DNA from: an uncultured Clostridia bacterium
GTDB taxonomy: Bacteria; Bacillota; Clostridia; TANB77; CAG-508
Reading direction: 5' to 3'
Assembly (NCBI GenBank): GCA_934120135.1
Contig: CAKOTK010000004.1
Coordinates: forward strand, 57,862 to 121,861
DNA: 64,000 nt
In this document: one piece after another, positions 43,606 to 58,234 of the stretch
Numbering within the stretch: position 1 is the first letter of the stretch
How the letters are laid out: each line of letters starts with the position of its first letter
Notes under the pieces: model-generated
Database searches by the model: none
What the model was told of the DNA's origin: nothing
What the model saw: the letters and a program-made list of their open reading frames with translations, nothing else
Program-made: the position numbers and the translations under genes

Positions 43606-44410
43606 TTATCTCTGAAAATCGTCTAAAGTTTTAAACTCATACCCCATCTTTTTAATTTCCTTAATACAATAATCTAAAATATTGCTATTGTCTTTTGAAG
43701 TTGCATGTAGTAATATAACTGCTCCGAGGATGTATGTTATTTAAAACCATCTTTTTGCCATAATCTTCTCTACCTTGTTTATTTTCGTCCCAATCATCAT
43801 AAGCAAAACTCCACATAACTGTTTTATAGCCTAATGTATTAGTATATGCTACAGTTCTTTCACTATATTCTCCTTTTGGTGGACGAATGTATTTCATTTC
43901 ATAATTAAATTTTTGATAAACTGCTGTATGCAAATCCATTACTTCTTTTTGTATTTGTTCATTTGTTAAATCTGGCATACTTTTATGATTTACTGTATGA
44001 TTTCCAACAGTATGACCCTCATCTATCATTTGCTTTACTAAGTCTGATGCAGTATTCAAATAATGAGCCGTTATAAAGAATGTAGCAGGAACTTGATTTT
44101 CCTTTAATATTGCTAGTATTTTAGGTGTATAACCTGCTTCATATCCATTGTCAAAAGTAAGATAAACATATTTTGAATTTTTATTTCCCATAGCAATTCC
44201 TTCATATGTATCTATTATTTTTTTATTTACACTTCCTAAATCTGGTTGTTCATTATTTTTAGATCTTTTTATTCCCCAACCAATTCTTTTTTCGCTAACT
44301 GAACTTGCACTTGTTTCTGTCGTATTGTTTGTATTAATTACGGAAATTGAAAAAATAAATACTAATAAAATTGATGATATAACTATAAGAAAATTTGACT
44401 TTTTTTTCAT
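43606..44410 (-). pseudogene. polysaccharide deacetylase (NodB homology) with a frameshift near the C-terminus
   Basis: LTFDNGYE and GNHTVNH NodB motifs. After HP the frame switches; the canonical tail GAVILLHATSKDN...GYEFKTLDDFQR is in the +1 frame (shift ~43724-43729). Start at M33 of the track ORF (SD AGAGGGA). Confidence 0.65.
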
Positions 44411-44623
44411 CCTATCCCTCTTTCCTTTTAATAACAATGCTTTCATTTTTTTCGACATTTTATAAGTTTTTGCAAAATTATTCTTGACAATATTGTTTAT
44501 TTGCATTATATTTATATAGGCAATTGGAAAAAAATGGGTAATTTTATTTTGTTTTGTCGAATTACCATTGCACGTTTTTGTTGTGTTAATTTATATTTAT
44601 TATATTATACGGGGGAAAAATAT

Positions 44624-45370
44624 ATGTTAGATTTTGTATTATGTGATGATAATTTTAACGCTTTAACAAGATTAGAAAAGATGCTAGAATCTTTATTTAT
44701 TGAGTGTAAAATTAACGCGCGTATTGCATTAAGTACAACAAATCCTGAGGAGTTAACTGAGTTTGTAAAAGTTAACAAGGTTAATGTTGTATTTTTAGAT
44801 ATTGATTTAAAATCTAACATTACTGGGCTAGATTTAGCTGATATTATCCGTAAAAAGGATAAAAACATTTATATTATCTTTACAACTGGTCATTTAGAAT
44901 ATGGTTTAATGGCATATAAGTATAAAACTTTTGATTATATACCCAAACCAATAACTGTAGAGAGATTAAAAGATACTATAAGTAGGTTGGTCGAAGATTT
45001 TTCGGGTTCTGAACCCAAGTTTGTAAGACTTGATAATAATAGGACTATTATCAAGCAAGATAAGATTTTGTATATTCAAAAAGAGGGGATGAAAACTATC
45101 TTTTATACTGATACAAGAGAATATGAGACTTATAGTTCTTTTAAAGTTATAATGTTACAATTGCCAGACACTTTTATACAATGCCATAAATCATATATCG
45201 TTAATACTAAAAAAATAACTAGTGTAGACTTTTCTAACAATGTTATTTTTCTAAATGATAATGAGGACTATAAATGCTTTATAGGTCCTAAATATAAAAA
45301 TAAAATTATGGAGGTTTTTAATTATGAAAATTTTTCAAACAATTTGGACAGCAATGACGACACAGAATGA
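44624..45370 (+). CDS. LytTR-family response regulator (AgrA-like)
   Basis: Receiver domain (LDFVLCDDN...D) plus LytTR DNA-binding domain. Start at M42 of the track ORF, SD GGGGGAAAAA. Confidence 0.8.
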   Translation: MLDFVLCDDNFNALTRLEKMLESLFIECKINARIALSTTNPEELTEFVKVNKVNVVFLDIDLKSNITGLDLADIIRKKDKNIYIIFTTGHLEYGLMAYKYKTFDYIPKPITVERLKDTISRLVEDFSGSEPKFVRLDNNRTIIKQDKILYIQKEGMKTIFYTDTREYETYSSFKVIMLQLPDTFIQCHKSYIVNTKKITSVDFSNNVIFLNDNEDYKCFIGPKYKNKIMEVFNYENFSNNLDSNDDTE

Positions 45371-46679
45371 AATCGCTTTAAGTATTGTAGGATTTTTATC
45401 TTGTTTTATTGATACTTTCGTGAATATGTTATTATTTACCACTATCTTAAATATAAACGCTACAAAGAAATCAAAAATTATTTATGTCATAGTTATGGGA
45501 ATAATAGCAATTCTATCTAGAAGTCTTATTCCTGATCCCTATGGTACATTTTTTAATATGCTTATTATTATATTTATAATTAAATTCATATTGAAGACAA
45601 GTTGGTTAAAATCTTTTTTATCTGAATTTATCGTAATAAGCACAAGTTCTTTAATGGAAATATTCTTTTTTAATTTTTATACAGAAATATGTAAAATACC
45701 ATATGATTTATTAATGTATACTCCTATATATAGATTATTATCTACTCTTTTAATATATTTGTTCATCTACATTATATACAAAATTATAAAATATTTTAAA
45801 TTTTATATAAAATTGGAAAACATGACCAAAAAGAATAAATACTTATTTATAACTAATGCTATATTAGGAATTATTGCAATGAGTACACAGTTCTATCTAC
45901 TTTCTGTTTATAGTGGTAATATGCCAATTATTATAACAATTACTAGTATACTAAGTCTATTAGCATATTTCGTTATTAGTATATATAGCTTATTAAGTAC
46001 AGGTAAACTAGATACTACCACTAGAGATTTAGAAGAAGCACAATTGTATAACAAAACATTAACAATTTTACATGACAGCATCAGAGGCTTTAAACATGAT
46101 TTTCATAATATTGTTCAAAGTATTGGTGGTTATGCAGATAGAGGTGACTTAGAAGGATTACGTGTTTATTACAGACAACTTCTACAAGATTGTGGACGTA
46201 CTAATAATTTAACTGCCCTAAATCCAGAAGTTATTAATAATCCTGCTATATACAATGTCCTAGCCACTAAATATCATAAAGCTGATGAAATTGGTGTTCA
46301 AATAAATTTAGGTATTTTTATAGATTTAAATGAAATTGAAAAATATATGAAAATTTATGAATTTACCAGAATATTAGGTATACTTTTAGATAATGCTATT
46401 GAAGCTGCTTCTGAATGTGAAAATAAAGTAATTCATGTAAGTTTTAGAAAAGAACAAAATCGTAGAAGATTACTTGTAATAATTGATAATACATATAAAA
46501 ATAAAGATATAAATGTAGATAAAATTTATGAAAAGGATTTTTCAACTAAATCTAAAAATACTAATAGCGGACTTGGTTTGTGGGAAGTCAGACAAATATT
46601 AAAGAAAAATAATAATTTGAATTTATATACTACTAAAAGTGAAGAGTTCTTTTCACAACAATTTGAAATATATTATTAA
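45324..46679 (+). CDS. AgrC/ComD-like HPK10 sensor histidine kinase
   Basis: Six to seven transmembrane helices; H-box FKHDFHN; N-box NAIEAAS; G-box GLGLWEV. Confidence 0.8.
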   Translation: MKIFQTIWTAMTTQNEIALSIVGFLSCFIDTFVNMLLFTTILNINATKKSKIIYVIVMGIIAILSRSLIPDPYGTFFNMLIIIFIIKFILKTSWLKSFLSEFIVISTSSLMEIFFFNFYTEICKIPYDLLMYTPIYRLLSTLLIYLFIYIIYKIIKYFKFYIKLENMTKKNKYLFITNAILGIIAMSTQFYLLSVYSGNMPIIITITSILSLLAYFVISIYSLLSTGKLDTTTRDLEEAQLYNKTLTILHDSIRGFKHDFHNIVQSIGGYADRGDLEGLRVYYRQLLQDCGRTNNLTALNPEVINNPAIYNVLATKYHKADEIGVQINLGIFIDLNEIEKYMKIYEFTRILGILLDNAIEAASECENKVIHVSFRKEQNRRRLLVIIDNTYKNKDINVDKIYEKDFSTKSKNTNSGLGLWEVRQILKKNNNLNLYTTKSEEFFSQQFEIYY

Positions 46680-46685
46680 AAAAGT

Positions 46686-46740
46686 AAATACAAAGAGGTA
46701 TCTTGATTTAAGATACCTCTTTGTATTTGTTTTGTCGTTT
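46686..46740. terminator. bidirectional terminator between the convergent kinase and agrBD units
   Basis: 19-bp stem AAATACAAAGAGGTATCTT / AAGATACCTCTTTGTATTT with T-tracts on both sides. Confidence 0.8.
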
Positions 46741-46772
46741 TAAGGAAATATTTATATTTATTTATATTATAA

Positions 46773-46892
46773 TTAATCTTTTTTGATTAATGATGCTGGC
46801 ATTGTTGGTTGATGTAATAATCCTAATACCCAACATGCTGTATTTGTAGATCTTGCGTATTTTTCTGCAACTTTAGCTAATAGTTTTAACAT
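46773..46892 (-). CDS. agrD: unannotated AgrD-like autoinducing-peptide precursor (39 aa) MLKLLAKVAEKYARSTNTACWVLGLLHQPTMPASLIKKD
   Basis: SD AGGAGG 7 nt upstream. Single Cys then HQP and a charged tail, as in clostridial AgrD. Immediately downstream of agrB. Confidence 0.7.
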   Translation of the reverse strand: MLKLLAKVAEKYARSTNTACWVLGLLHQPTMPASLIKKD

Positions 46893-46955
46893 TTTTATTC
46901 CTCCTTATATTATTATTTTTATATCATAAACATTGCCGGCCAATGTATTATAATC

Positions 46956-47576
46956 TTAAATTGTTTCCTCTGTATATACTTTGTAGCCATGTTTGTTATT
47001 TGTTATTTTATATGAAATAGGTAATACTGTTAGGTTTTGCAAAAACATTGCATAAATTATCATGTATGAAAATTGTTTGTATGGGTTAAATATTATTATT
47101 GATAATAAAACTACTAATGATATATATGACTTAATTTTTTTAGATTTTATTTCTTTTTTGCTCAAAATAGGCATATTTTCTGTGTCTGCAGGTGCATATT
47201 TAGCAATTATAATAATACTAAATATTGTTATCAACCCTGCTAATATATAAAGAATATTTTTATCTGATATTAAAATATATTTTGATAATATAATTGGTAA
47301 TAAATATAAAACAGATGTTGTAATCATACAACCTAAATGTGTTTTTAAATGAAAACCACCTGTAAAACTTCTATAAGGTGCTATTAAGAAAAATAATAAT
47401 AAAGTTTGCCATCCCATATTTAATAAAAATCCTATAATGAATAATATTAAAATTTTAGGTAATTCTCCAAAAATTAATCTTACACCAAAGTTAATAATTA
47501 ATTCTCTTTCCTCATCTATGTCTGTAACCTTTGATTTAATTTTTTCAGTTATCAAATCACAAAATTTATCAATCAT
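46956..47576 (-). CDS. agrB: accessory gene regulator B (AgrD-processing membrane peptidase)
   Basis: Polytopic membrane protein with RSFTGGFHLKTHLGC (conserved His/Cys pair). Confidence 0.8.
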   Translation of the reverse strand: MIDKFCDLITEKIKSKVTDIDEERELIINFGVRLIFGELPKILILFIIGFLLNMGWQTLLLFFLIAPYRSFTGGFHLKTHLGCMITTSVLYLLPIILSKYILISDKNILYILAGLITIFSIIIIAKYAPADTENMPILSKKEIKSKKIKSYISLVVLLSIIIFNPYKQFSYMIIYAMFLQNLTVLPISYKITNNKHGYKVYTEETI

Positions 47577-47742
47577 TTTCTTACCTCGTTCTTTGTTATC
47601 TGTATTTTATATTTTTTAAACGCAAAAATAAAAAAACTTTATAAAGATATAAAAATTGTGTGCGAAATTTGTCGTTTTTTGTTTTAGTCACAATTTTTGT
47701 ATTTTCATAAAGTTTAGTTTAATTTTACAAATATATAATGTT

Positions 47743-48429
47743 TCATAATTGAATATCTTTTAGTATTGCCCAACTTCCAAGCATTTGAGGTACATCTTTA
47801 AATTCCATTAGTTCATTTGTAATAGGATGATATAGTTTTAATTCATATGCCCAAAGTGCAATTTGTTTTCCATGACCTCTTCCACCATATTTTTGGTCTC
47901 CATATATGCTATGGTCTCTACTAGATAATTGCACCCTAATCTGGTGATGTCTTCCTGTATGCAAGTTTATTTTTAAAACTGATAAGTTTAATTCTTCATC
48001 ATATTTTAAAACTTCATAATCTAATATGGCTGATTTGCTATTCTTAGTTCCTTCTTTCACAACTTTGCTCATATTAGTTCTCTCATTTTTTAGTAAATAG
48101 TCTTGTAATGTTCCTTTTGAGCTTTCCATCTTTCCATTTACTATTACTAAATATGTTTTTTGAAATTGTTTTTCTCTTACTTGATTACTTAGTCTTCCTG
48201 CTGCTTTCGAAGTTTTAGCAAATACCATTACTCCACCAACAGGCCTATCTAATCTATGTACTAATCCTAAATACACATTTCCTGGTTTGTTATACTTTTC
48301 TTTTAAATATGCTTTTATTATTGTAAGCATATCAACATCACCTGTTTTATCTGCCTGTGATGGTATGTTTACTGGTTTTTCTACTACTATTATATGGTTA
48401 TCTTCAAATATTACTTTTAAATTCTGCAT
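47743..48429 (-). CDS. RluA-family pseudouridine synthase
   Basis: VHRLDRPVGG catalytic Asp motif. Confidence 0.8.
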   Translation of the reverse strand: MQNLKVIFEDNHIIVVEKPVNIPSQADKTGDVDMLTIIKAYLKEKYNKPGNVYLGLVHRLDRPVGGVMVFAKTSKAAGRLSNQVREKQFQKTYLVIVNGKMESSKGTLQDYLLKNERTNMSKVVKEGTKNSKSAILDYEVLKYDEELNLSVLKINLHTGRHHQIRVQLSSRDHSIYGDQKYGGRGHGKQIALWAYELKLYHPITNELMEFKDVPQMLGSWAILKDIQL

Positions 48430-49293
48430 TTAATTCTCCCATCTTCCATAAATACCACATGGTAAAATCATTTTTGAGTTAGTCATAGGCAGACCTATTT
48501 CTCCATTTGATACTTTTCCTTTATATTTCTTTGATATTGTAAGCTCTAAAATATTTTGTAAAACTGTACTTGATATTCCTGTTGTATATGAATTGATTAA
48601 GAAAAATAGTGGTTTGTCTGATAATACTTGTGCACATAAATTTACAAGCTCTGGTAAGTTCTCTTCAAATTTCCACACTTCTCCATTTGCGCCTCTTCCA
48701 TAAGATGGTGGGTCCATAATTATTGCATCATATTTGTTGCCTCTACGAATTTCTCTATTTACAAATTTAATAACATCATCAACTATATATCTAACTGGTC
48801 TGTCTTGTAAGCCTGAAGCTTGTATATTTTCTTTTGCCCATGCTACCATACCTTTTGAACTATCTACATGACAAACTTGAGCACCAGCATAACTACATGC
48901 TACTGTTGCTCCTCCTGTATATGCAAATAGGTTTAATACTTTTATTTCTCTATTTGCTTTTTGAATTTTTTCTATCATCCAGTCCCAATTAACTGCTTGT
49001 TCTGGAAATAAACCAGTGTGTTTAAATCCCATTGGCTTTATATTAAATGTTAAATTTTTGTATTTGACTTGCCATGCATCTGGCATTTTTTTATTGTATT
49101 CCCAGTTTCCACCACCTGTTGAACTTCTGTGGTATTTAGCATTAACATTTTTCCACTTTTCTGGAAAACTTTTTTGTGTCCATATTATTTGTGGGTCTGG
49201 TCTTACTAAAATAACATTTTTCCATCGCTCTAGTTTTTCACCATTTGCCATGTCTAATATTTCGTAATCTTGCCAATCTTTTGCTACATTCAT
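48430..49293 (-). CDS. class I SAM-dependent RNA methyltransferase (RlmI/YwbD-like)
   Basis: DPPSYG motif and Rossmann-fold signatures. Confidence 0.7.
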   Translation of the reverse strand: MNVAKDWQDYEILDMANGEKLERWKNVILVRPDPQIIWTQKSFPEKWKNVNAKYHRSSTGGGNWEYNKKMPDAWQVKYKNLTFNIKPMGFKHTGLFPEQAVNWDWMIEKIQKANREIKVLNLFAYTGGATVACSYAGAQVCHVDSSKGMVAWAKENIQASGLQDRPVRYIVDDVIKFVNREIRRGNKYDAIIMDPPSYGRGANGEVWKFEENLPELVNLCAQVLSDKPLFFLINSYTTGISSTVLQNILELTISKKYKGKVSNGEIGLPMTNSKMILPCGIYGRWEN

Positions 49294-49327
49294 TTCTAAA
49301 TATCCTTCCTCTTCTCCATATATAATA

Positions 49328-49540
49328 TTACATAGTTCCAGTTAAAATATGTATAAAATTTATAACCAACATCACATCCATAACTACAAATGTTAAAAAT
49401 ATAGCACATGCAGTTACTGCTAATTTATGTTTTTTTATTTTTTGTATAAATCTACTTGTCCATTTTAATGACCCCAAATTTAAAGTATTACTACTTTCAT
49501 CATAACGTATATTTAAAATTAAATCTTTTGTGTACTCCAT
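49328..49540 (-). CDS. hypothetical small membrane protein (~70 aa)
   Basis: SD AGGAGG upstream of the internal ATG (MEYTKDL...); C-terminal transmembrane helix. Confidence 0.45.
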   Translation of the reverse strand: MEYTKDLILNIRYDESSNTLNLGSLKWTSRFIQKIKKHKLAVTACAIFLTFVVMDVMLVINFIHILTGTM

Positions 49541-56153: not shown

Positions 56154-56204
56154 ATTAGCACTAGGAATACAAATTAAAAAAATATCCTTTAGGAGGGTTG
56201 TATA

Positions 56205-56385
56205 TATTTAGCGCCAGGACAGTGTTTATACACTGTTGACGAGGTTAGAGCTTATCGAAAGATTCGGCGGATGGCTCTATGGCATGCGTTACTGCCATTA
56301 CATATTAACAAAAAAATTATAGTGATATAATATAACAAATTTAATATGAGTGCGCTTTAATTTGTATGCCTTACTTTAAATTTTA
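56205..56385 (+). ncRNA. glmS ribozyme: glmS ribozyme (GlcN6P-dependent self-cleaving riboswitch)
   Basis: Core AGCGCCAGGAC...GACGAGG...TATCGAAAGATTCGGCGGATG matches the glmS ribozyme P1-P2.2 consensus; located in the glmS 5' UTR. Confidence 0.8.
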
Positions 56386-56401: not shown

Positions 56402-58234
56402 ATGTGTGGCATTATAGGTTATATAGGAGACAAAAAAGCCACTCCAGTTTTAATAAATGGTTTATTATGTTTAGAATACCGAGGTTATGACTCTGCTGGT
56501 ATTGCTGTTATTGAAGACGGCAAAATTACTGTAATGAAAGATAAAGGAAGAGTTGCAAATTTAGAAGCAATTGATGGTATAAATGATTTAAAATCTACTA
56601 TTGGTATTGCACATACAAGATGGGCAACTCATGGAAAACCTGCAAAAGAAAATTCTCATCCTCATATGGATAATAGCGGTGAATTTGTAGTTGTGCACAA
56701 TGGTATTATTGAAAATTACCATGAATTAAAAGAATTTTTAGCTTCTAAAGGATATTACTTTTTATCCCAAACAGACACAGAAATAATTCCTAATTTGATT
56801 CATTACTATTACACAAATGGAATAAATGATGATGACAAATTCTTAAGAGCCGTAAAATCTGCAGTCGATGATTTAAAAGGAAGTTATGCACTAGAAATTA
56901 TTTCTAACTTACATCCTGATAGAGTTATTGTAGTTAGAAAAGATAGTCCTTTAGTTTTAGGAAAAGGAAATGGTGAAAACTTTATTGCATCAGATATTCC
57001 TGCTGTTTTAAAATATACAAAGGAATTTTATTTGTTAGATGACCAAGAGTATGCAGTTGTTTATAAAGACCATATAGATTTTTATGATAATAGCTTAACT
57101 TCTCATAGCAAAGCTATTAAGAATATTGAATGGGATGCTACTGCAGCAGAGAAAAATGGCTATGAAGATTATATGTTAAAAGAAATATTTGAACAACCAA
57201 CTGCAATTCGTGAGACCATTGGTTCTAGATTTAAACTTGGAGAAAAATGCAGTTTTGATGACATAGACATTTCAAAAGAATATTTAGAGAAAATAAATAA
57301 GATATATATTGTTGCTTGTGGTACAGCTATGCATGCAGGTTTAGTCGGAAAAAATGCAATTGAAAAACTTTGCAAAATTCCTACTGTAGTTGATATTGCA
57401 TCTGAGTTCCGTTATCGTGACCCAATTATAGATGATAAAACACTTTGTATCTATATTAGTCAATCTGGCGAAACTGCTGATACAATTGCAGCTTTAAAAC
57501 TTGCTAAGGCTAAAGGTGCTAAAACATTAGCTGTTTCAAATGTAATTGGAAGTTCAATTACTCGTGAGGCTGATTATACAATATATACTCATGCCGGTCC
57601 TGAAATTGCTGTTGCTTCTACAAAAGCATATACTTCACAAGTTGTGTTAATGGTAATTTTAGCTATGTATTTTGCTGAAGTTTTAGGATCATATGATGGA
57701 ATTGAAAAATTAAAAGCTGATATTTTAGATTTACCTGCTAAAGTTGAAGCCATGTTAGATGAAACAGATGCTATTAAAGAGTTTGCTAACAAAGTATATA
57801 CTGAGCATGATATGTACTTTTTAGGTAGAGGTACTGATTACAATGTTGCAATGGAAGGTTCTTTAAAATTAAAAGAAATTTCATATATTCATTCTGAGGC
57901 ATATGCTTCTGGCGAATTAAAACATGGACCTATTGCTTTAATTGAAAATGGTATAACTGTAATTAGTATTTTAACAGATCCTAATTTAGTTGAAAAATCT
58001 ATTAGCAATATTCAAGAAGTTATAACAAGAGGTGCTAAAACTTTAGTCGTTACAAATCAAAAGTTATCAAATAGTTCATTTAATTATGTTATAAATATAC
58101 CTGAAACTAATAGCCTTATCTCACCTATCCTTTCTGTTATTCCACTTCAATTGCTTTCCTACTACATTGCTAAAAATAAAGGATTAGATGTTGATAAACC
58201 AAGAAACTTGGCTAAATCAGTTACAGTTGAATAA
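56402..58234 (+). CDS. glmS: glutamine--fructose-6-phosphate aminotransferase
   Basis: MCGIIGY N-terminal nucleophile, two SIS domains, C-terminal KSVTVE. Confidence 0.95.
   Translation: MCGIIGYIGDKKATPVLINGLLCLEYRGYDSAGIAVIEDGKITVMKDKGRVANLEAIDGINDLKSTIGIAHTRWATHGKPAKENSHPHMDNSGEFVVVHNGIIENYHELKEFLASKGYYFLSQTDTEIIPNLIHYYYTNGINDDDKFLRAVKSAVDDLKGSYALEIISNLHPDRVIVVRKDSPLVLGKGNGENFIASDIPAVLKYTKEFYLLDDQEYAVVYKDHIDFYDNSLTSHSKAIKNIEWDATAAEKNGYEDYMLKEIFEQPTAIRETIGSRFKLGEKCSFDDIDISKEYLEKINKIYIVACGTAMHAGLVGKNAIEKLCKIPTVVDIASEFRYRDPIIDDKTLCIYISQSGETADTIAALKLAKAKGAKTLAVSNVIGSSITREADYTIYTHAGPEIAVASTKAYTSQVVLMVILAMYFAEVLGSYDGIEKLKADILDLPAKVEAMLDETDAIKEFANKVYTEHDMYFLGRGTDYNVAMEGSLKLKEISYIHSEAYASGELKHGPIALIENGITVISILTDPNLVEKSISNIQEVITRGAKTLVVTNQKLSNSSFNYVINIPETNSLISPILSVIPLQLLSYYIAKNKGLDVDKPRNLAKSVTVE

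Follow-up and report, generated by a model that had tools for sequence, protein, structure and literature searches.

Between positions 44624 and 47576 of the 64,000-nucleotide stretch of uncultured Clostridia DNA analyzed here (contig CAKOTK010000004.1; hereafter, the window), four genes lie in two convergent units, agrA-agrC on the plus strand and agrB-agrD on the minus strand. Together they form a complete agr-type locus, and very probably a functional quorum-sensing system that works through an autoinducing peptide (AIP), with the steps of processing and signalling being inferred from the workings of characterized families. A preliminary description of this DNA had proposed that the agr-type locus was complete and included an AgrD precursor, and every element that it listed was found in place. 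The proposal is now supported by the matches of all four proteins to family models, by conservation of the locus in 26 related species, and by purifying selection on the small open reading frame (ORF) that encodes the precursor. The agr kind of system is already known, and its peptide family has already been named by public pipelines; what our analysis would add, based on sequence comparison, is a likely seven-residue ring, a very high diversity of pherotypes, recombination of the locus as a cassette, and the host clade in which all this occurs. The genes and the elements that define the locus are as follows.

44624-45370, plus strand: agrA, LytTR-family response regulator of 248 amino acids (Response_reg, 3.9e-14; LytTR, 4.1e-18)
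45324-46679, plus strand: agrC, HPK10-type sensor histidine kinase of 451 amino acids (HATPase_c_5, a GHKL domain, 6e-18)
about 45324-45923, plus strand: polytopic hypervariable sensor half of AgrC, residues 1-200 (sequence comparison, hydropathy)
46686-46728, both strands: bidirectional intrinsic terminator, stem of 19-20 base pairs (bp), 5-nucleotide loop, flanked by an A-tract and a T-tract (-25.1 kcal/mol)
46773-46892, minus strand: agrD, autoinducing-peptide precursor of 39 amino acids (TIGR04223 match, orthologue in every locus)
46815-46835, minus strand: codons of the predicted mature macrocycle C-W-V-L-G-L-L, Cys20-Leu26 (boundary predicted)
46900-46904, minus strand: Shine-Dalgarno sequence of agrD, GGAGG, 7 nucleotides before the ATG (AGGAGG or GGGGG in every species)
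46956-47576, minus strand: agrB, predicted membrane cysteine endopeptidase/cyclase, 206 amino acids (Pfam AgrB, PF04647)
47349-47351 and 47328-47330, minus strand: catalytic-type H76 and C83 of AgrB (invariant in 27 genomes)

Gene families, layout and conservation

Membership at the family level holds for all four proteins. AgrB matches PF04647 with 142.1 bits (cut-off 23; E = 1.6e-41) over profile positions 3-183 of 185, and has the several hydrophobic segments of a polytopic membrane protein. The preliminary description had pointed to a conserved His and Cys in the AgrB motif GGFHLKTHLGC, which corresponds to residues 73-83; these residues, H76 and C83, are in fact invariant and seven residues apart, and we take them to be equivalent to H77 and C84 of Staphylococcus aureus AgrB. 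A sequence search with AgrB against the chains of the Protein Data Bank returned no match. AgrD (MLKLLAKVAEKYARSTNTACWVLGLLHQPTMPASLIKKD) aligns through its residues 1-37 to positions 3-38 of the 38-position NCBIfam model TIGR04223 (quorum_AgrD, cyclic lactone autoinducer peptide) with 29.5 bits (cut-off 19; E = 5.9e-07), and no Pfam model matches it. The top NCBIfam model for AgrA, a receiver followed by a LytTR domain, is AgrA itself (1.2e-21), and that for AgrC is staphylococcal AgrC (1.2e-28). Residues D8, D9, D59 and K108 of AgrA, as well as H258 (in FKHDF), N357, G416 and G418 of AgrC, are invariant in the 22-27 genomes compared. The kinase half of AgrC aligns with the kinase module of S. 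aureus AgrC (6e52; E = 2.7e-19), with FKHDFHN placed upon FRHDYVN, and this alignment, along with the domain matches, bears out the earlier reading of a rightwards-transcribed LytTR regulator and an HPK10 AgrC-like kinase with FKHDFHN as its H-box. Hydropathy peaks in AgrC are confined to residues 19-220, as for an N-terminal sensor that is polytopic and lacks an extracytoplasmic domain.

The agrC start lies 47 nucleotides inside agrA, in another frame and with a GGAGG of its own (45324-45370), and the length of this overlap is identical in related loci. On the opposite strand, a gap of 63 nucleotides separates agrB from agrD. The Shine-Dalgarno sequence noted for the small ORF is strong and has a counterpart in every species. 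All species compared likewise have a strong hairpin in the interval that separates the two stop codons; a terminator search detected the hairpin on both strands at the point where, as had been proposed, the two units meet at a bidirectional terminator with a 19-bp stem (4 sites in the region vs 0.7 expected). Stem sequences differ among species in spite of the hairpin being kept, as would be expected if the function conserved is that of a terminator.

The S. aureus agrBDCA (RNAII) locus is built from these four protein families as well, and also shares with the window an AgrD in three parts (amphipathic leader, Cys core and Pro follower), an HPK10 AgrC with an aligned H-box, a LytTR AgrA, and an AgrB with His and Cys seven residues apart. 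The gene order, however, is unlike that of the staphylococcal operon, as had been stated earlier: the window has two convergent operons sharing a terminator rather than a single one, and the regulator gene precedes the kinase gene. Furthermore, a search against Rfam found no RNAIII-like element in the locus; in one primer RNAIII is described for staphylococci only and is said to be absent from the lactobacillus and Listeria systems (PMC12312760). The map order A-C-D-B, with the regulator before the kinase, is that of agr2 (agrACDB) of Clostridioides difficile, which however is reported to be a single co-directional transcript (PMC3754575), whereas agrB-agrD here run on the strand opposite to agrA-agrC. 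Transcription of agrBD and agrCA as separate units is also known from Clostridium acetobutylicum and in Agr1 of Ruminiclostridium cellulolyticum (PMC12312760, PMC3754575), both of which have hydrophobic cores like the one described here. In a limited literature search, which included these two species, we found no description of a convergent agr layout.

Conservation was surveyed using one genome per prokaryotic species, which yielded 26 related loci. An agrB homologue in relatives that regularly lacked a peptide gene would have spoken against the locus as first described; instead, agrB is followed by an orthologous small ORF on the same strand in 26/26 species, and agrC and agrA are convergent to agrB-agrD in all 26, wherever the contig is long enough. 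Such recurrence of four genes is far beyond chance. The agrD gene has exactly 39 codons in all 26 related species, and its invariant residues each draw on several synonymous codons: Cys20 is encoded by TGT (14) and TGC (13), Ala9 by GCA (13) and GCT (13), Pro29 by CCA (17) and CCT (10), Ile36 by three codons, and Ser34 by TCA, TCT, AGT and AGC, with Pro32 and Asp39 also mixed. Because the codons vary at residues that do not, agrD is under purifying selection at the protein level. The possibility that agrD is a chance ORF in AT-rich DNA was considered and ruled out, since its length is fixed, a Shine-Dalgarno sequence precedes it and its variation is only synonymous. A more distant relative (P0223, locus L033) encodes an AgrD of 37 amino acids in the same convergent layout, beside YabP and YqfD, so that the arrangement is old in the lineage. 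Another sequence, P0196 (L032, 31-321, plus strand), was considered as a relative with co-directional agrD and agrC and rejected, as the same 1.6-kb contig carries a normal convergent agrD and agrB; P0196 is a called gene of 96 amino acids in which an AgrD-like N-terminus is fused to the last ~55 residues of AgrC, and probably arose as a chimera of assembly or through rearrangement at this site.

The peptide had been called unannotated, and this is true only of the list of ORFs that accompanied the preliminary description. All four proteins are in fact present verbatim in public collections, the exact 39-residue AgrD is a called gene on 66 contigs, and its close relatives carry the NCBI/JGI name "cyclic lactone autoinducer peptide". 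Contigs with an identical AgrD, which come from metagenomes, share a neighborhood of UvrC, a SAM methyltransferase, an RluA-type pseudouridine synthase, agrB, agrD, agrC, agrA, a polysaccharide deacetylase, YabP and YqfD. The clostridial setting suggested earlier also needs to be qualified, because the host is not a classical Clostridium: all 26 related loci are from metagenome-assembled genomes of uncultured "Clostridia" from human, rabbit and other guts, and the nearest named genomes are Clostridium sp. CAG:508 (AgrB 95% identical) and CAG:273. The G+C content of the window is 25-32%. CAG-508 is a major family of TANB77, an uncultured order with reduced genomes; it is prevalent, and enriched in responders to immunotherapy (PMC11680825). 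Clostridium sp. CAG:508 can be tied to this family only through the shared name. While agr is a textbook system in pathogens, it has barely been studied in gut commensals, and a conserved, strongly selected circuit located beside sporulation genes could provide a handle on this lineage, with synthetic peptides as possible cues for cultivation or sporulation. Our results leave the understanding of agr unchanged; they extend a known kind of system to a new clade, with a structural twist that is plausible but unproven.

Precursor anatomy and size of the peptide ring

Alignment of the orthologues divides AgrD into a leader (M1-A19), Cys20, a variable core (W21-L26) and a follower (H27-D39). The leader (MLKLLAKVAEKYAKSTNTA) is nearly invariant, with a helical hydrophobic moment of 0.66 and a mean hydrophobicity near zero; Cys20 is invariant; residues 21-26 are hypervariable and are the sole variable stretch; and the follower (HQPKMPASLIKKD; HQP(K/T)MPASLIKKD, with Thr at position 30 in the window) is again nearly invariant. 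The AgrD layout seen earlier, that is an amphipathic N-terminus, a single Cys and a charged tail, is thus upheld by the leader moment together with the TIGR04223 match. In the pathway that we propose, the agrB-agrD message would give rise to the 39-residue AgrD, the amphipathic leader of which would take the precursor to the membrane. AgrB, with H76 and C83, would recognize the follower, remove it, and close a thiolactone between Cys20 and the C-terminus thus created. The cut would presumably fall directly before His27 and yield a seven-residue macrocycle, C-W-V-L-G-L-L, while removal of the leader right at the Cys, as it occurs in several clostridia, would permit an S-to-N acyl shift to a homodetic cyclic heptapeptide. 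For a peptide without a tail, such a shift to a homodetic cyclopeptide would be expected by analogy (PMC8251862).

With regard to ring size, we consider CWVLGLL to be about as probable as all the other possibilities combined. The wording of the preliminary description, in which the signal contained CWVLG(LL), left the size open, and the evidence at hand leans to all seven residues. Known agr rings have five residues in staphylococci, Clostridium perfringens (CLWFT) and C. difficile (ANST[CPWII]) (PMC12312760, PMC8251862), six in the tail-less peptides of C. acetobutylicum (CVLVTL) and R. cellulolyticum (CWFWSY) (PMC8251862, PMC12312760), and nine in the agr-type gelatinase biosynthesis-activating pheromone (GBAP) of Enterococcus faecalis (PMC12312760). 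The span from Cys to follower in the AgrD family of the window is instead seven residues, against five in S. aureus AgrD, and a ring of seven, if true, would be a size outside those listed (5, 6 and 9). The C. difficile AgrD1 precursor is ANSTCPWIIHQPK (PMC8534292), and the peptide listed for it is ANST[CPWII] (PMC12312760). The likeness of the HQP motif to clostridial AgrD, which had been noted earlier, holds in that HQP(K/T)MP resembles the HQPK found directly after the ring in CPWIIHQPK (PMC8534292); what differs is that two extra residues separate Cys from HQP in the window. Because the C. difficile ring ends at the residue before HQP, the same rule applied here would give C-W-V-L-G-L-L.

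The pattern of variation also points to seven residues. Counting from Cys20, variability at +5 and +6 matches that at +1 to +3, everything from the His onward is frozen, and hypervariability therefore spans exactly the interval from Cys to His; the residues before the Cys are invariant, so that no specificity would be carried there. Differences at +5/+6 predict how far the sensor half of AgrC has diverged (0.023 for each difference; permutation P = 0.0035), as do differences at +1 to +3 (0.028 per difference, permutation P = 0.0005), when kinase distance is included as a covariate. Two points need to be held against these arguments: the regression of sensor on core controls shared ancestry only in part, and the Gly at +4, invariant in the close clade, could mark cleavage after a five-residue ring, with +5 and +6 as a tolerant hydrophobic linker.

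The foremost alternative, which we regard as a good deal less probable than the ring of seven although well worth considering, is the same system with a canonical five-residue ring, C-W-V-L-G, in which AgrB cuts after the Gly and the next two residues leave with the follower. Five is the commonest ring size known (PMC12312760), and Gly occupies +4 in 25/27 species and in all of the 84 closest cores, as would be anticipated for a fixed P1 residue. This alternative has to contend, however, with the variability of +5/+6, which resembles that of +1 to +3 and stops at the nearly invariant follower; with the independent association of +5/+6 with sensor divergence; with the loss of a fixed Gly at +4 in the wider family; and with the C. 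difficile ring, which directly abuts HQP (PMC8534292, PMC12312760). Six-residue rings and other sizes take up the likelihood that remains beside seven and five. For rings larger than five, E. faecalis fsrBDCA offers a precedent in GBAP, a nine-residue lactone (PMC12312760), even though this system differs from ours in forming the lactone through a Ser, in the arrangement of its precursor, and in being a co-directional operon. The closest characterized systems are clostridial, and that of R. cellulolyticum is the nearest in peptide chemistry (homodetic cyclopeptide): CVLVTL and CWFWSY lack an exocyclic tail, rearrange to homodetic cyclopeptides, and are linked to sporulation (PMC8251862). They differ from the peptide described here in that their rings have six residues where the core of the window allows seven, and in that they were chemically detected in cultured organisms, while ours is known from sequence. 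Our limited literature search found no description of a seven-residue AIP ring, nor of the follower motifs. Regardless of the outcome, an invariant follower set against a variable segment of seven residues makes a good test case for what determines ring size in AgrB.

A profile search with AgrD over 5.8 billion proteins returned 3115 clusters at E <= 1. In the 122 closest sequences, six residues always separate Cys and His, Gly is always at +4, and 84 distinct cores are found. When the family is clustered at 50% identity, Gly at +4 is no longer fixed (CMIWHAF, CGVFWYV, CVGWWLM, CMIVWWT). Core length also changes: a sister group with AgrD of 37 amino acids has only five residues after the Cys (SCWGWLLHQPKAP), and at the syntenic, orthologous locus of P0223 the Cys is likewise followed by five, so that length varies within the lineage. 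In the relatives P0184, P0188, P0189 and P0197 (e.g., TNTASFVLSWIHQP and TNTASFVLSWIHQPKMP), a Ser replaces the ring Cys, which would imply lactone instead of thiolactone variants within the family; Ser-for-Cys relatives are a further likeness to the E. faecalis system. C. difficile AgrD2, which also uses a Ser, has a five-residue ring (PMC12312760). AIP families have been found to be abundant in gut genomes by large-scale mining (PMC11953309).

Probable pairing of signal and receptor, recombination and alternative roles

The exported peptide would be sensed by the polytopic N-terminal half of AgrC, upon which AgrC would autophosphorylate at H258 and pass the phosphate to D59 of AgrA. Signal identity would then reside in the six residues that follow the Cys and in the sensor half of AgrC, both of which have jointly diversified into many pherotypes. 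Comparison of the window with its close relative L006 is consistent with such a scheme. Over 10 kb, the two are 93-100% identical at the DNA level, except for agrC codons 1-~250 (63-81%) and the agrD core; at the protein level, AgrA and AgrB are each 96% identical and the AgrC kinase half is 88-100% identical, in contrast to 28-68% for the sensor half. The AgrD cores are WVLGLL in the window and FVLGII in L006, whereas in metagenome copies with an identical AgrD the sensor halves differ by <= 2%. Across all species pairs, as core differences go from 0 to 6, sensor distance rises from 0.35 to 0.61 and kinase distance from 0.22 to 0.35. These data are indirect evidence that the AgrD core and the AgrC sensor are paired as signal and receptor. 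S. aureus, too, is known to have allelic specificity groups in which the AgrD core and the AgrC sensor are hypervariable (PMC12312760), but two differences from the staphylococcal case are apparent. AgrB here lies outside the hypervariable region and is 96% identical across pherotypes, which fits with an invariant leader and follower that AgrB must recognize, and the convergent layout splits the two variable segments by the conserved kinase-coding half of agrC.

We examined recombination through three-way patterns of informative sites among the window, L006 and the metagenome locus L001. L001 sides with L006 at 44000-45299 (39 sites vs 3) and from 47600 rightwards (21 vs 0), and with the window at 45300-46199 (221 vs 1) and 46600-46899 (28 vs 0), with mixed signal in the stretches between these blocks. 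The breakpoints are near the agrA/agrC junction and the agrB start. A mosaic of this kind indicates that the agrC-agrD(-agrB) block was exchanged between lineages by homologous recombination, and in our scheme it moves in this way between close lineages. The broader proposal, that gut Clostridia harbor a large AgrD family with a seven-residue ring, and that its pherotypes number from dozens to hundreds and are traded as an agrC-agrD cassette among lineages living together, we put forward tentatively, as somewhat less probable than the seven-residue ring by itself. Should it hold, this would be a natural system for strain-level kin discrimination in the uncultured, reduced-genome TANB77/CAG-508 clade. 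Pherotype cores are in any case usable as strain markers in metagenomes.

A second tract of divergence is seen in the metagenome locus L005, where agrB at its 5' end, together with the region upstream (equivalent to about 47400-47900 of the window), is only 64-86% identical to the otherwise near-identical L001. This is a second, independent recombination tract, here over the agrB promoter. That promoter and its candidate regulatory sites are as follows.

47604-47611, minus strand: -10 element TATAAAAT of the agrB-agrD promoter (columns conserved in the 27-species alignment)
47638-47667, minus strand: candidate AgrA (LytTR) boxes, 9-bp direct repeats with a 21-bp period, TTTCGCACA-N12-CTTTATAAA

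No conserved -35 element was found for the agrB-agrD promoter in the 27-species alignment. Phosphorylated AgrA probably binds the paired 9-bp repeats at this -35-less promoter, closing a loop of positive feedback, and these repeats would in this manner provide for autoinduction. Repeats of such size and spacing have the geometry of LytTR/AgrA sites, like those of S. aureus P2/P3. The consensus of the box family is TTTCGTAWA-N12-TTTCATAWA, and the proximal repeat ends ~26 nucleotides upstream of the -10. The best pair lies at -90 to -107 in about 22/27 species, and 23/27 score >= 15/18, compared to 5% of shuffles.

Several observations temper our confidence that the locus is a functional agr system. 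The organism is uncultured, and every step beyond the gene calls is an inference. AgrA (77.4 bits; equivalog NF046049, cut-off 400) and AgrC (100.5 bits; equivalog NF046015, cut-off 500) score far under the NCBIfam equivalog cut-offs, and are hence members of their families rather than staphylococcal orthologues. The consensus of the candidate AgrA boxes was derived from the same sequences that were scored, the copy in the window is weak (14/18), and a scan of the 64-kb window gave 2 matches vs 1.5 expected, which is at chance level and, at 28% GC, uninformative. Staphylococcal equivalog scores, a single operon and an RNAIII are all missing from the locus; none of these, however, defines agr outside staphylococci.

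As to what the peptide does, it seems to us unlikely that it serves chiefly for strains or species to interfere with one another, or as a cell-autonomous cue (e.g., through intracellular unprocessed AgrD), rather than as a density signal. The diversity of pherotypes within one habitat (84 cores among 122 sequences, and the 3115 clusters) does recall the cross-inhibiting groups of staphylococci (PMC12312760), and in C. difficile AgrD reportedly has a role that does not depend on AgrB (PMC8534292). Conservation of the kinase, the regulator and the promoter repeats speaks, on the other hand, for self-sensing having been retained. Interference and self-signalling are not separated by the present data, and in staphylococci the two coexist. 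Still more improbable, to the point of being nearly discounted, is that AgrC and AgrA are an independent LytTR two-component system beside an orphan agrBD, for in spite of the precedent of orphan agrBD with unlinked signalling, as in C. difficile agr1 (PMC4453554), and of the separate transcripts of the two units, the four genes are linked in 26/26 species as well as in the distant Cys-plus-five relative L033, the AgrC sensor half co-varies with the AgrD core, and agrC and agrD were transferred together in the L001 mosaic.

Other regulatory sequences and surrounding DNA

The elements upstream of agrA, and the block that lies between agrD and the terminator, are listed below.

44451-44457, no strand assigned: Spo0A-box match TTCGACA (reverse orientation), ~30 nucleotides upstream of the agrA -35 (equivalent box in 10/22 species)
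44484-44512, plus strand: agrA-agrC promoter, TTGACA-17 nucleotides-TATATT (11/12 consensus matches; -35 and -10 columns conserved in 22/22 aligned species)
44555-44561, plus strand: Spo0A-box match TGTCGAA in the agrA 5' leader (equivalent box in 10/22 species)
46731-46757, minus strand: conserved non-coding block ATAAATATTTCCTTAAAACGACAAA in the interval that separates the agrD stop from the terminator (nearly unchanged in most species)

The two Spo0A-box matches, both exact to the consensus TGNCGAA, are in inverted orientation, 104 bp apart, and bracket the agrA promoter. Their density is ~20-fold over background (0.23 boxes per kb, same loci). The box at 44451-44457 falls in the intergenic region common to agrA and the divergent polysaccharide deacetylase gene (43685-44410, minus strand), and could equally serve the latter. 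Because of these matches, of the neighboring YabP and YqfD genes, and of clostridial precedent (PMC8251862), sporulation is our leading guess for the regulated output.

Immediately downstream of the -10, the agrA leader has a block (44513-44550; AATTGGAAAnnnnTnGGTAAT) that is conserved in nearly all of the 22 species and could be an operator or an RNA element; the block has no match in Rfam. The Rfam search of the locus in fact gave nothing credible, which rules out a described riboswitch or RNAIII-like family but not an undescribed RNA. Part of the 46731-46757 block (AACGACAAA) recurs ~100 nucleotides upstream of agrB (47668-47676), and the UCCUUA within the block is the complement of a portion of the agrD ribosome-binding site.

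Over a 50-kb stretch of the window (4363-56019), GC skew is negative and the minus strand carries almost every long ORF. The agrA-agrC unit is the only long one on the plus strand in this stretch, and the skew flips locally at 44-48 kb, a pattern that would fit with the two-component genes having been inverted long ago. At about 49200-49400, near small ORFs upstream of the methyltransferase gene, there is an indel polymorphism: the window and L006 have the same form, and no more than about 45% of L001 and L005 can be aligned there. Farther to the right, a glmS ribozyme/riboswitch (RF00234) was found at 56199-56358 on the plus strand with 97.8 bits, compared to a gathering score of 37, just upstream of an ORF of 610 amino acids (56402-58234) that is presumably glmS.

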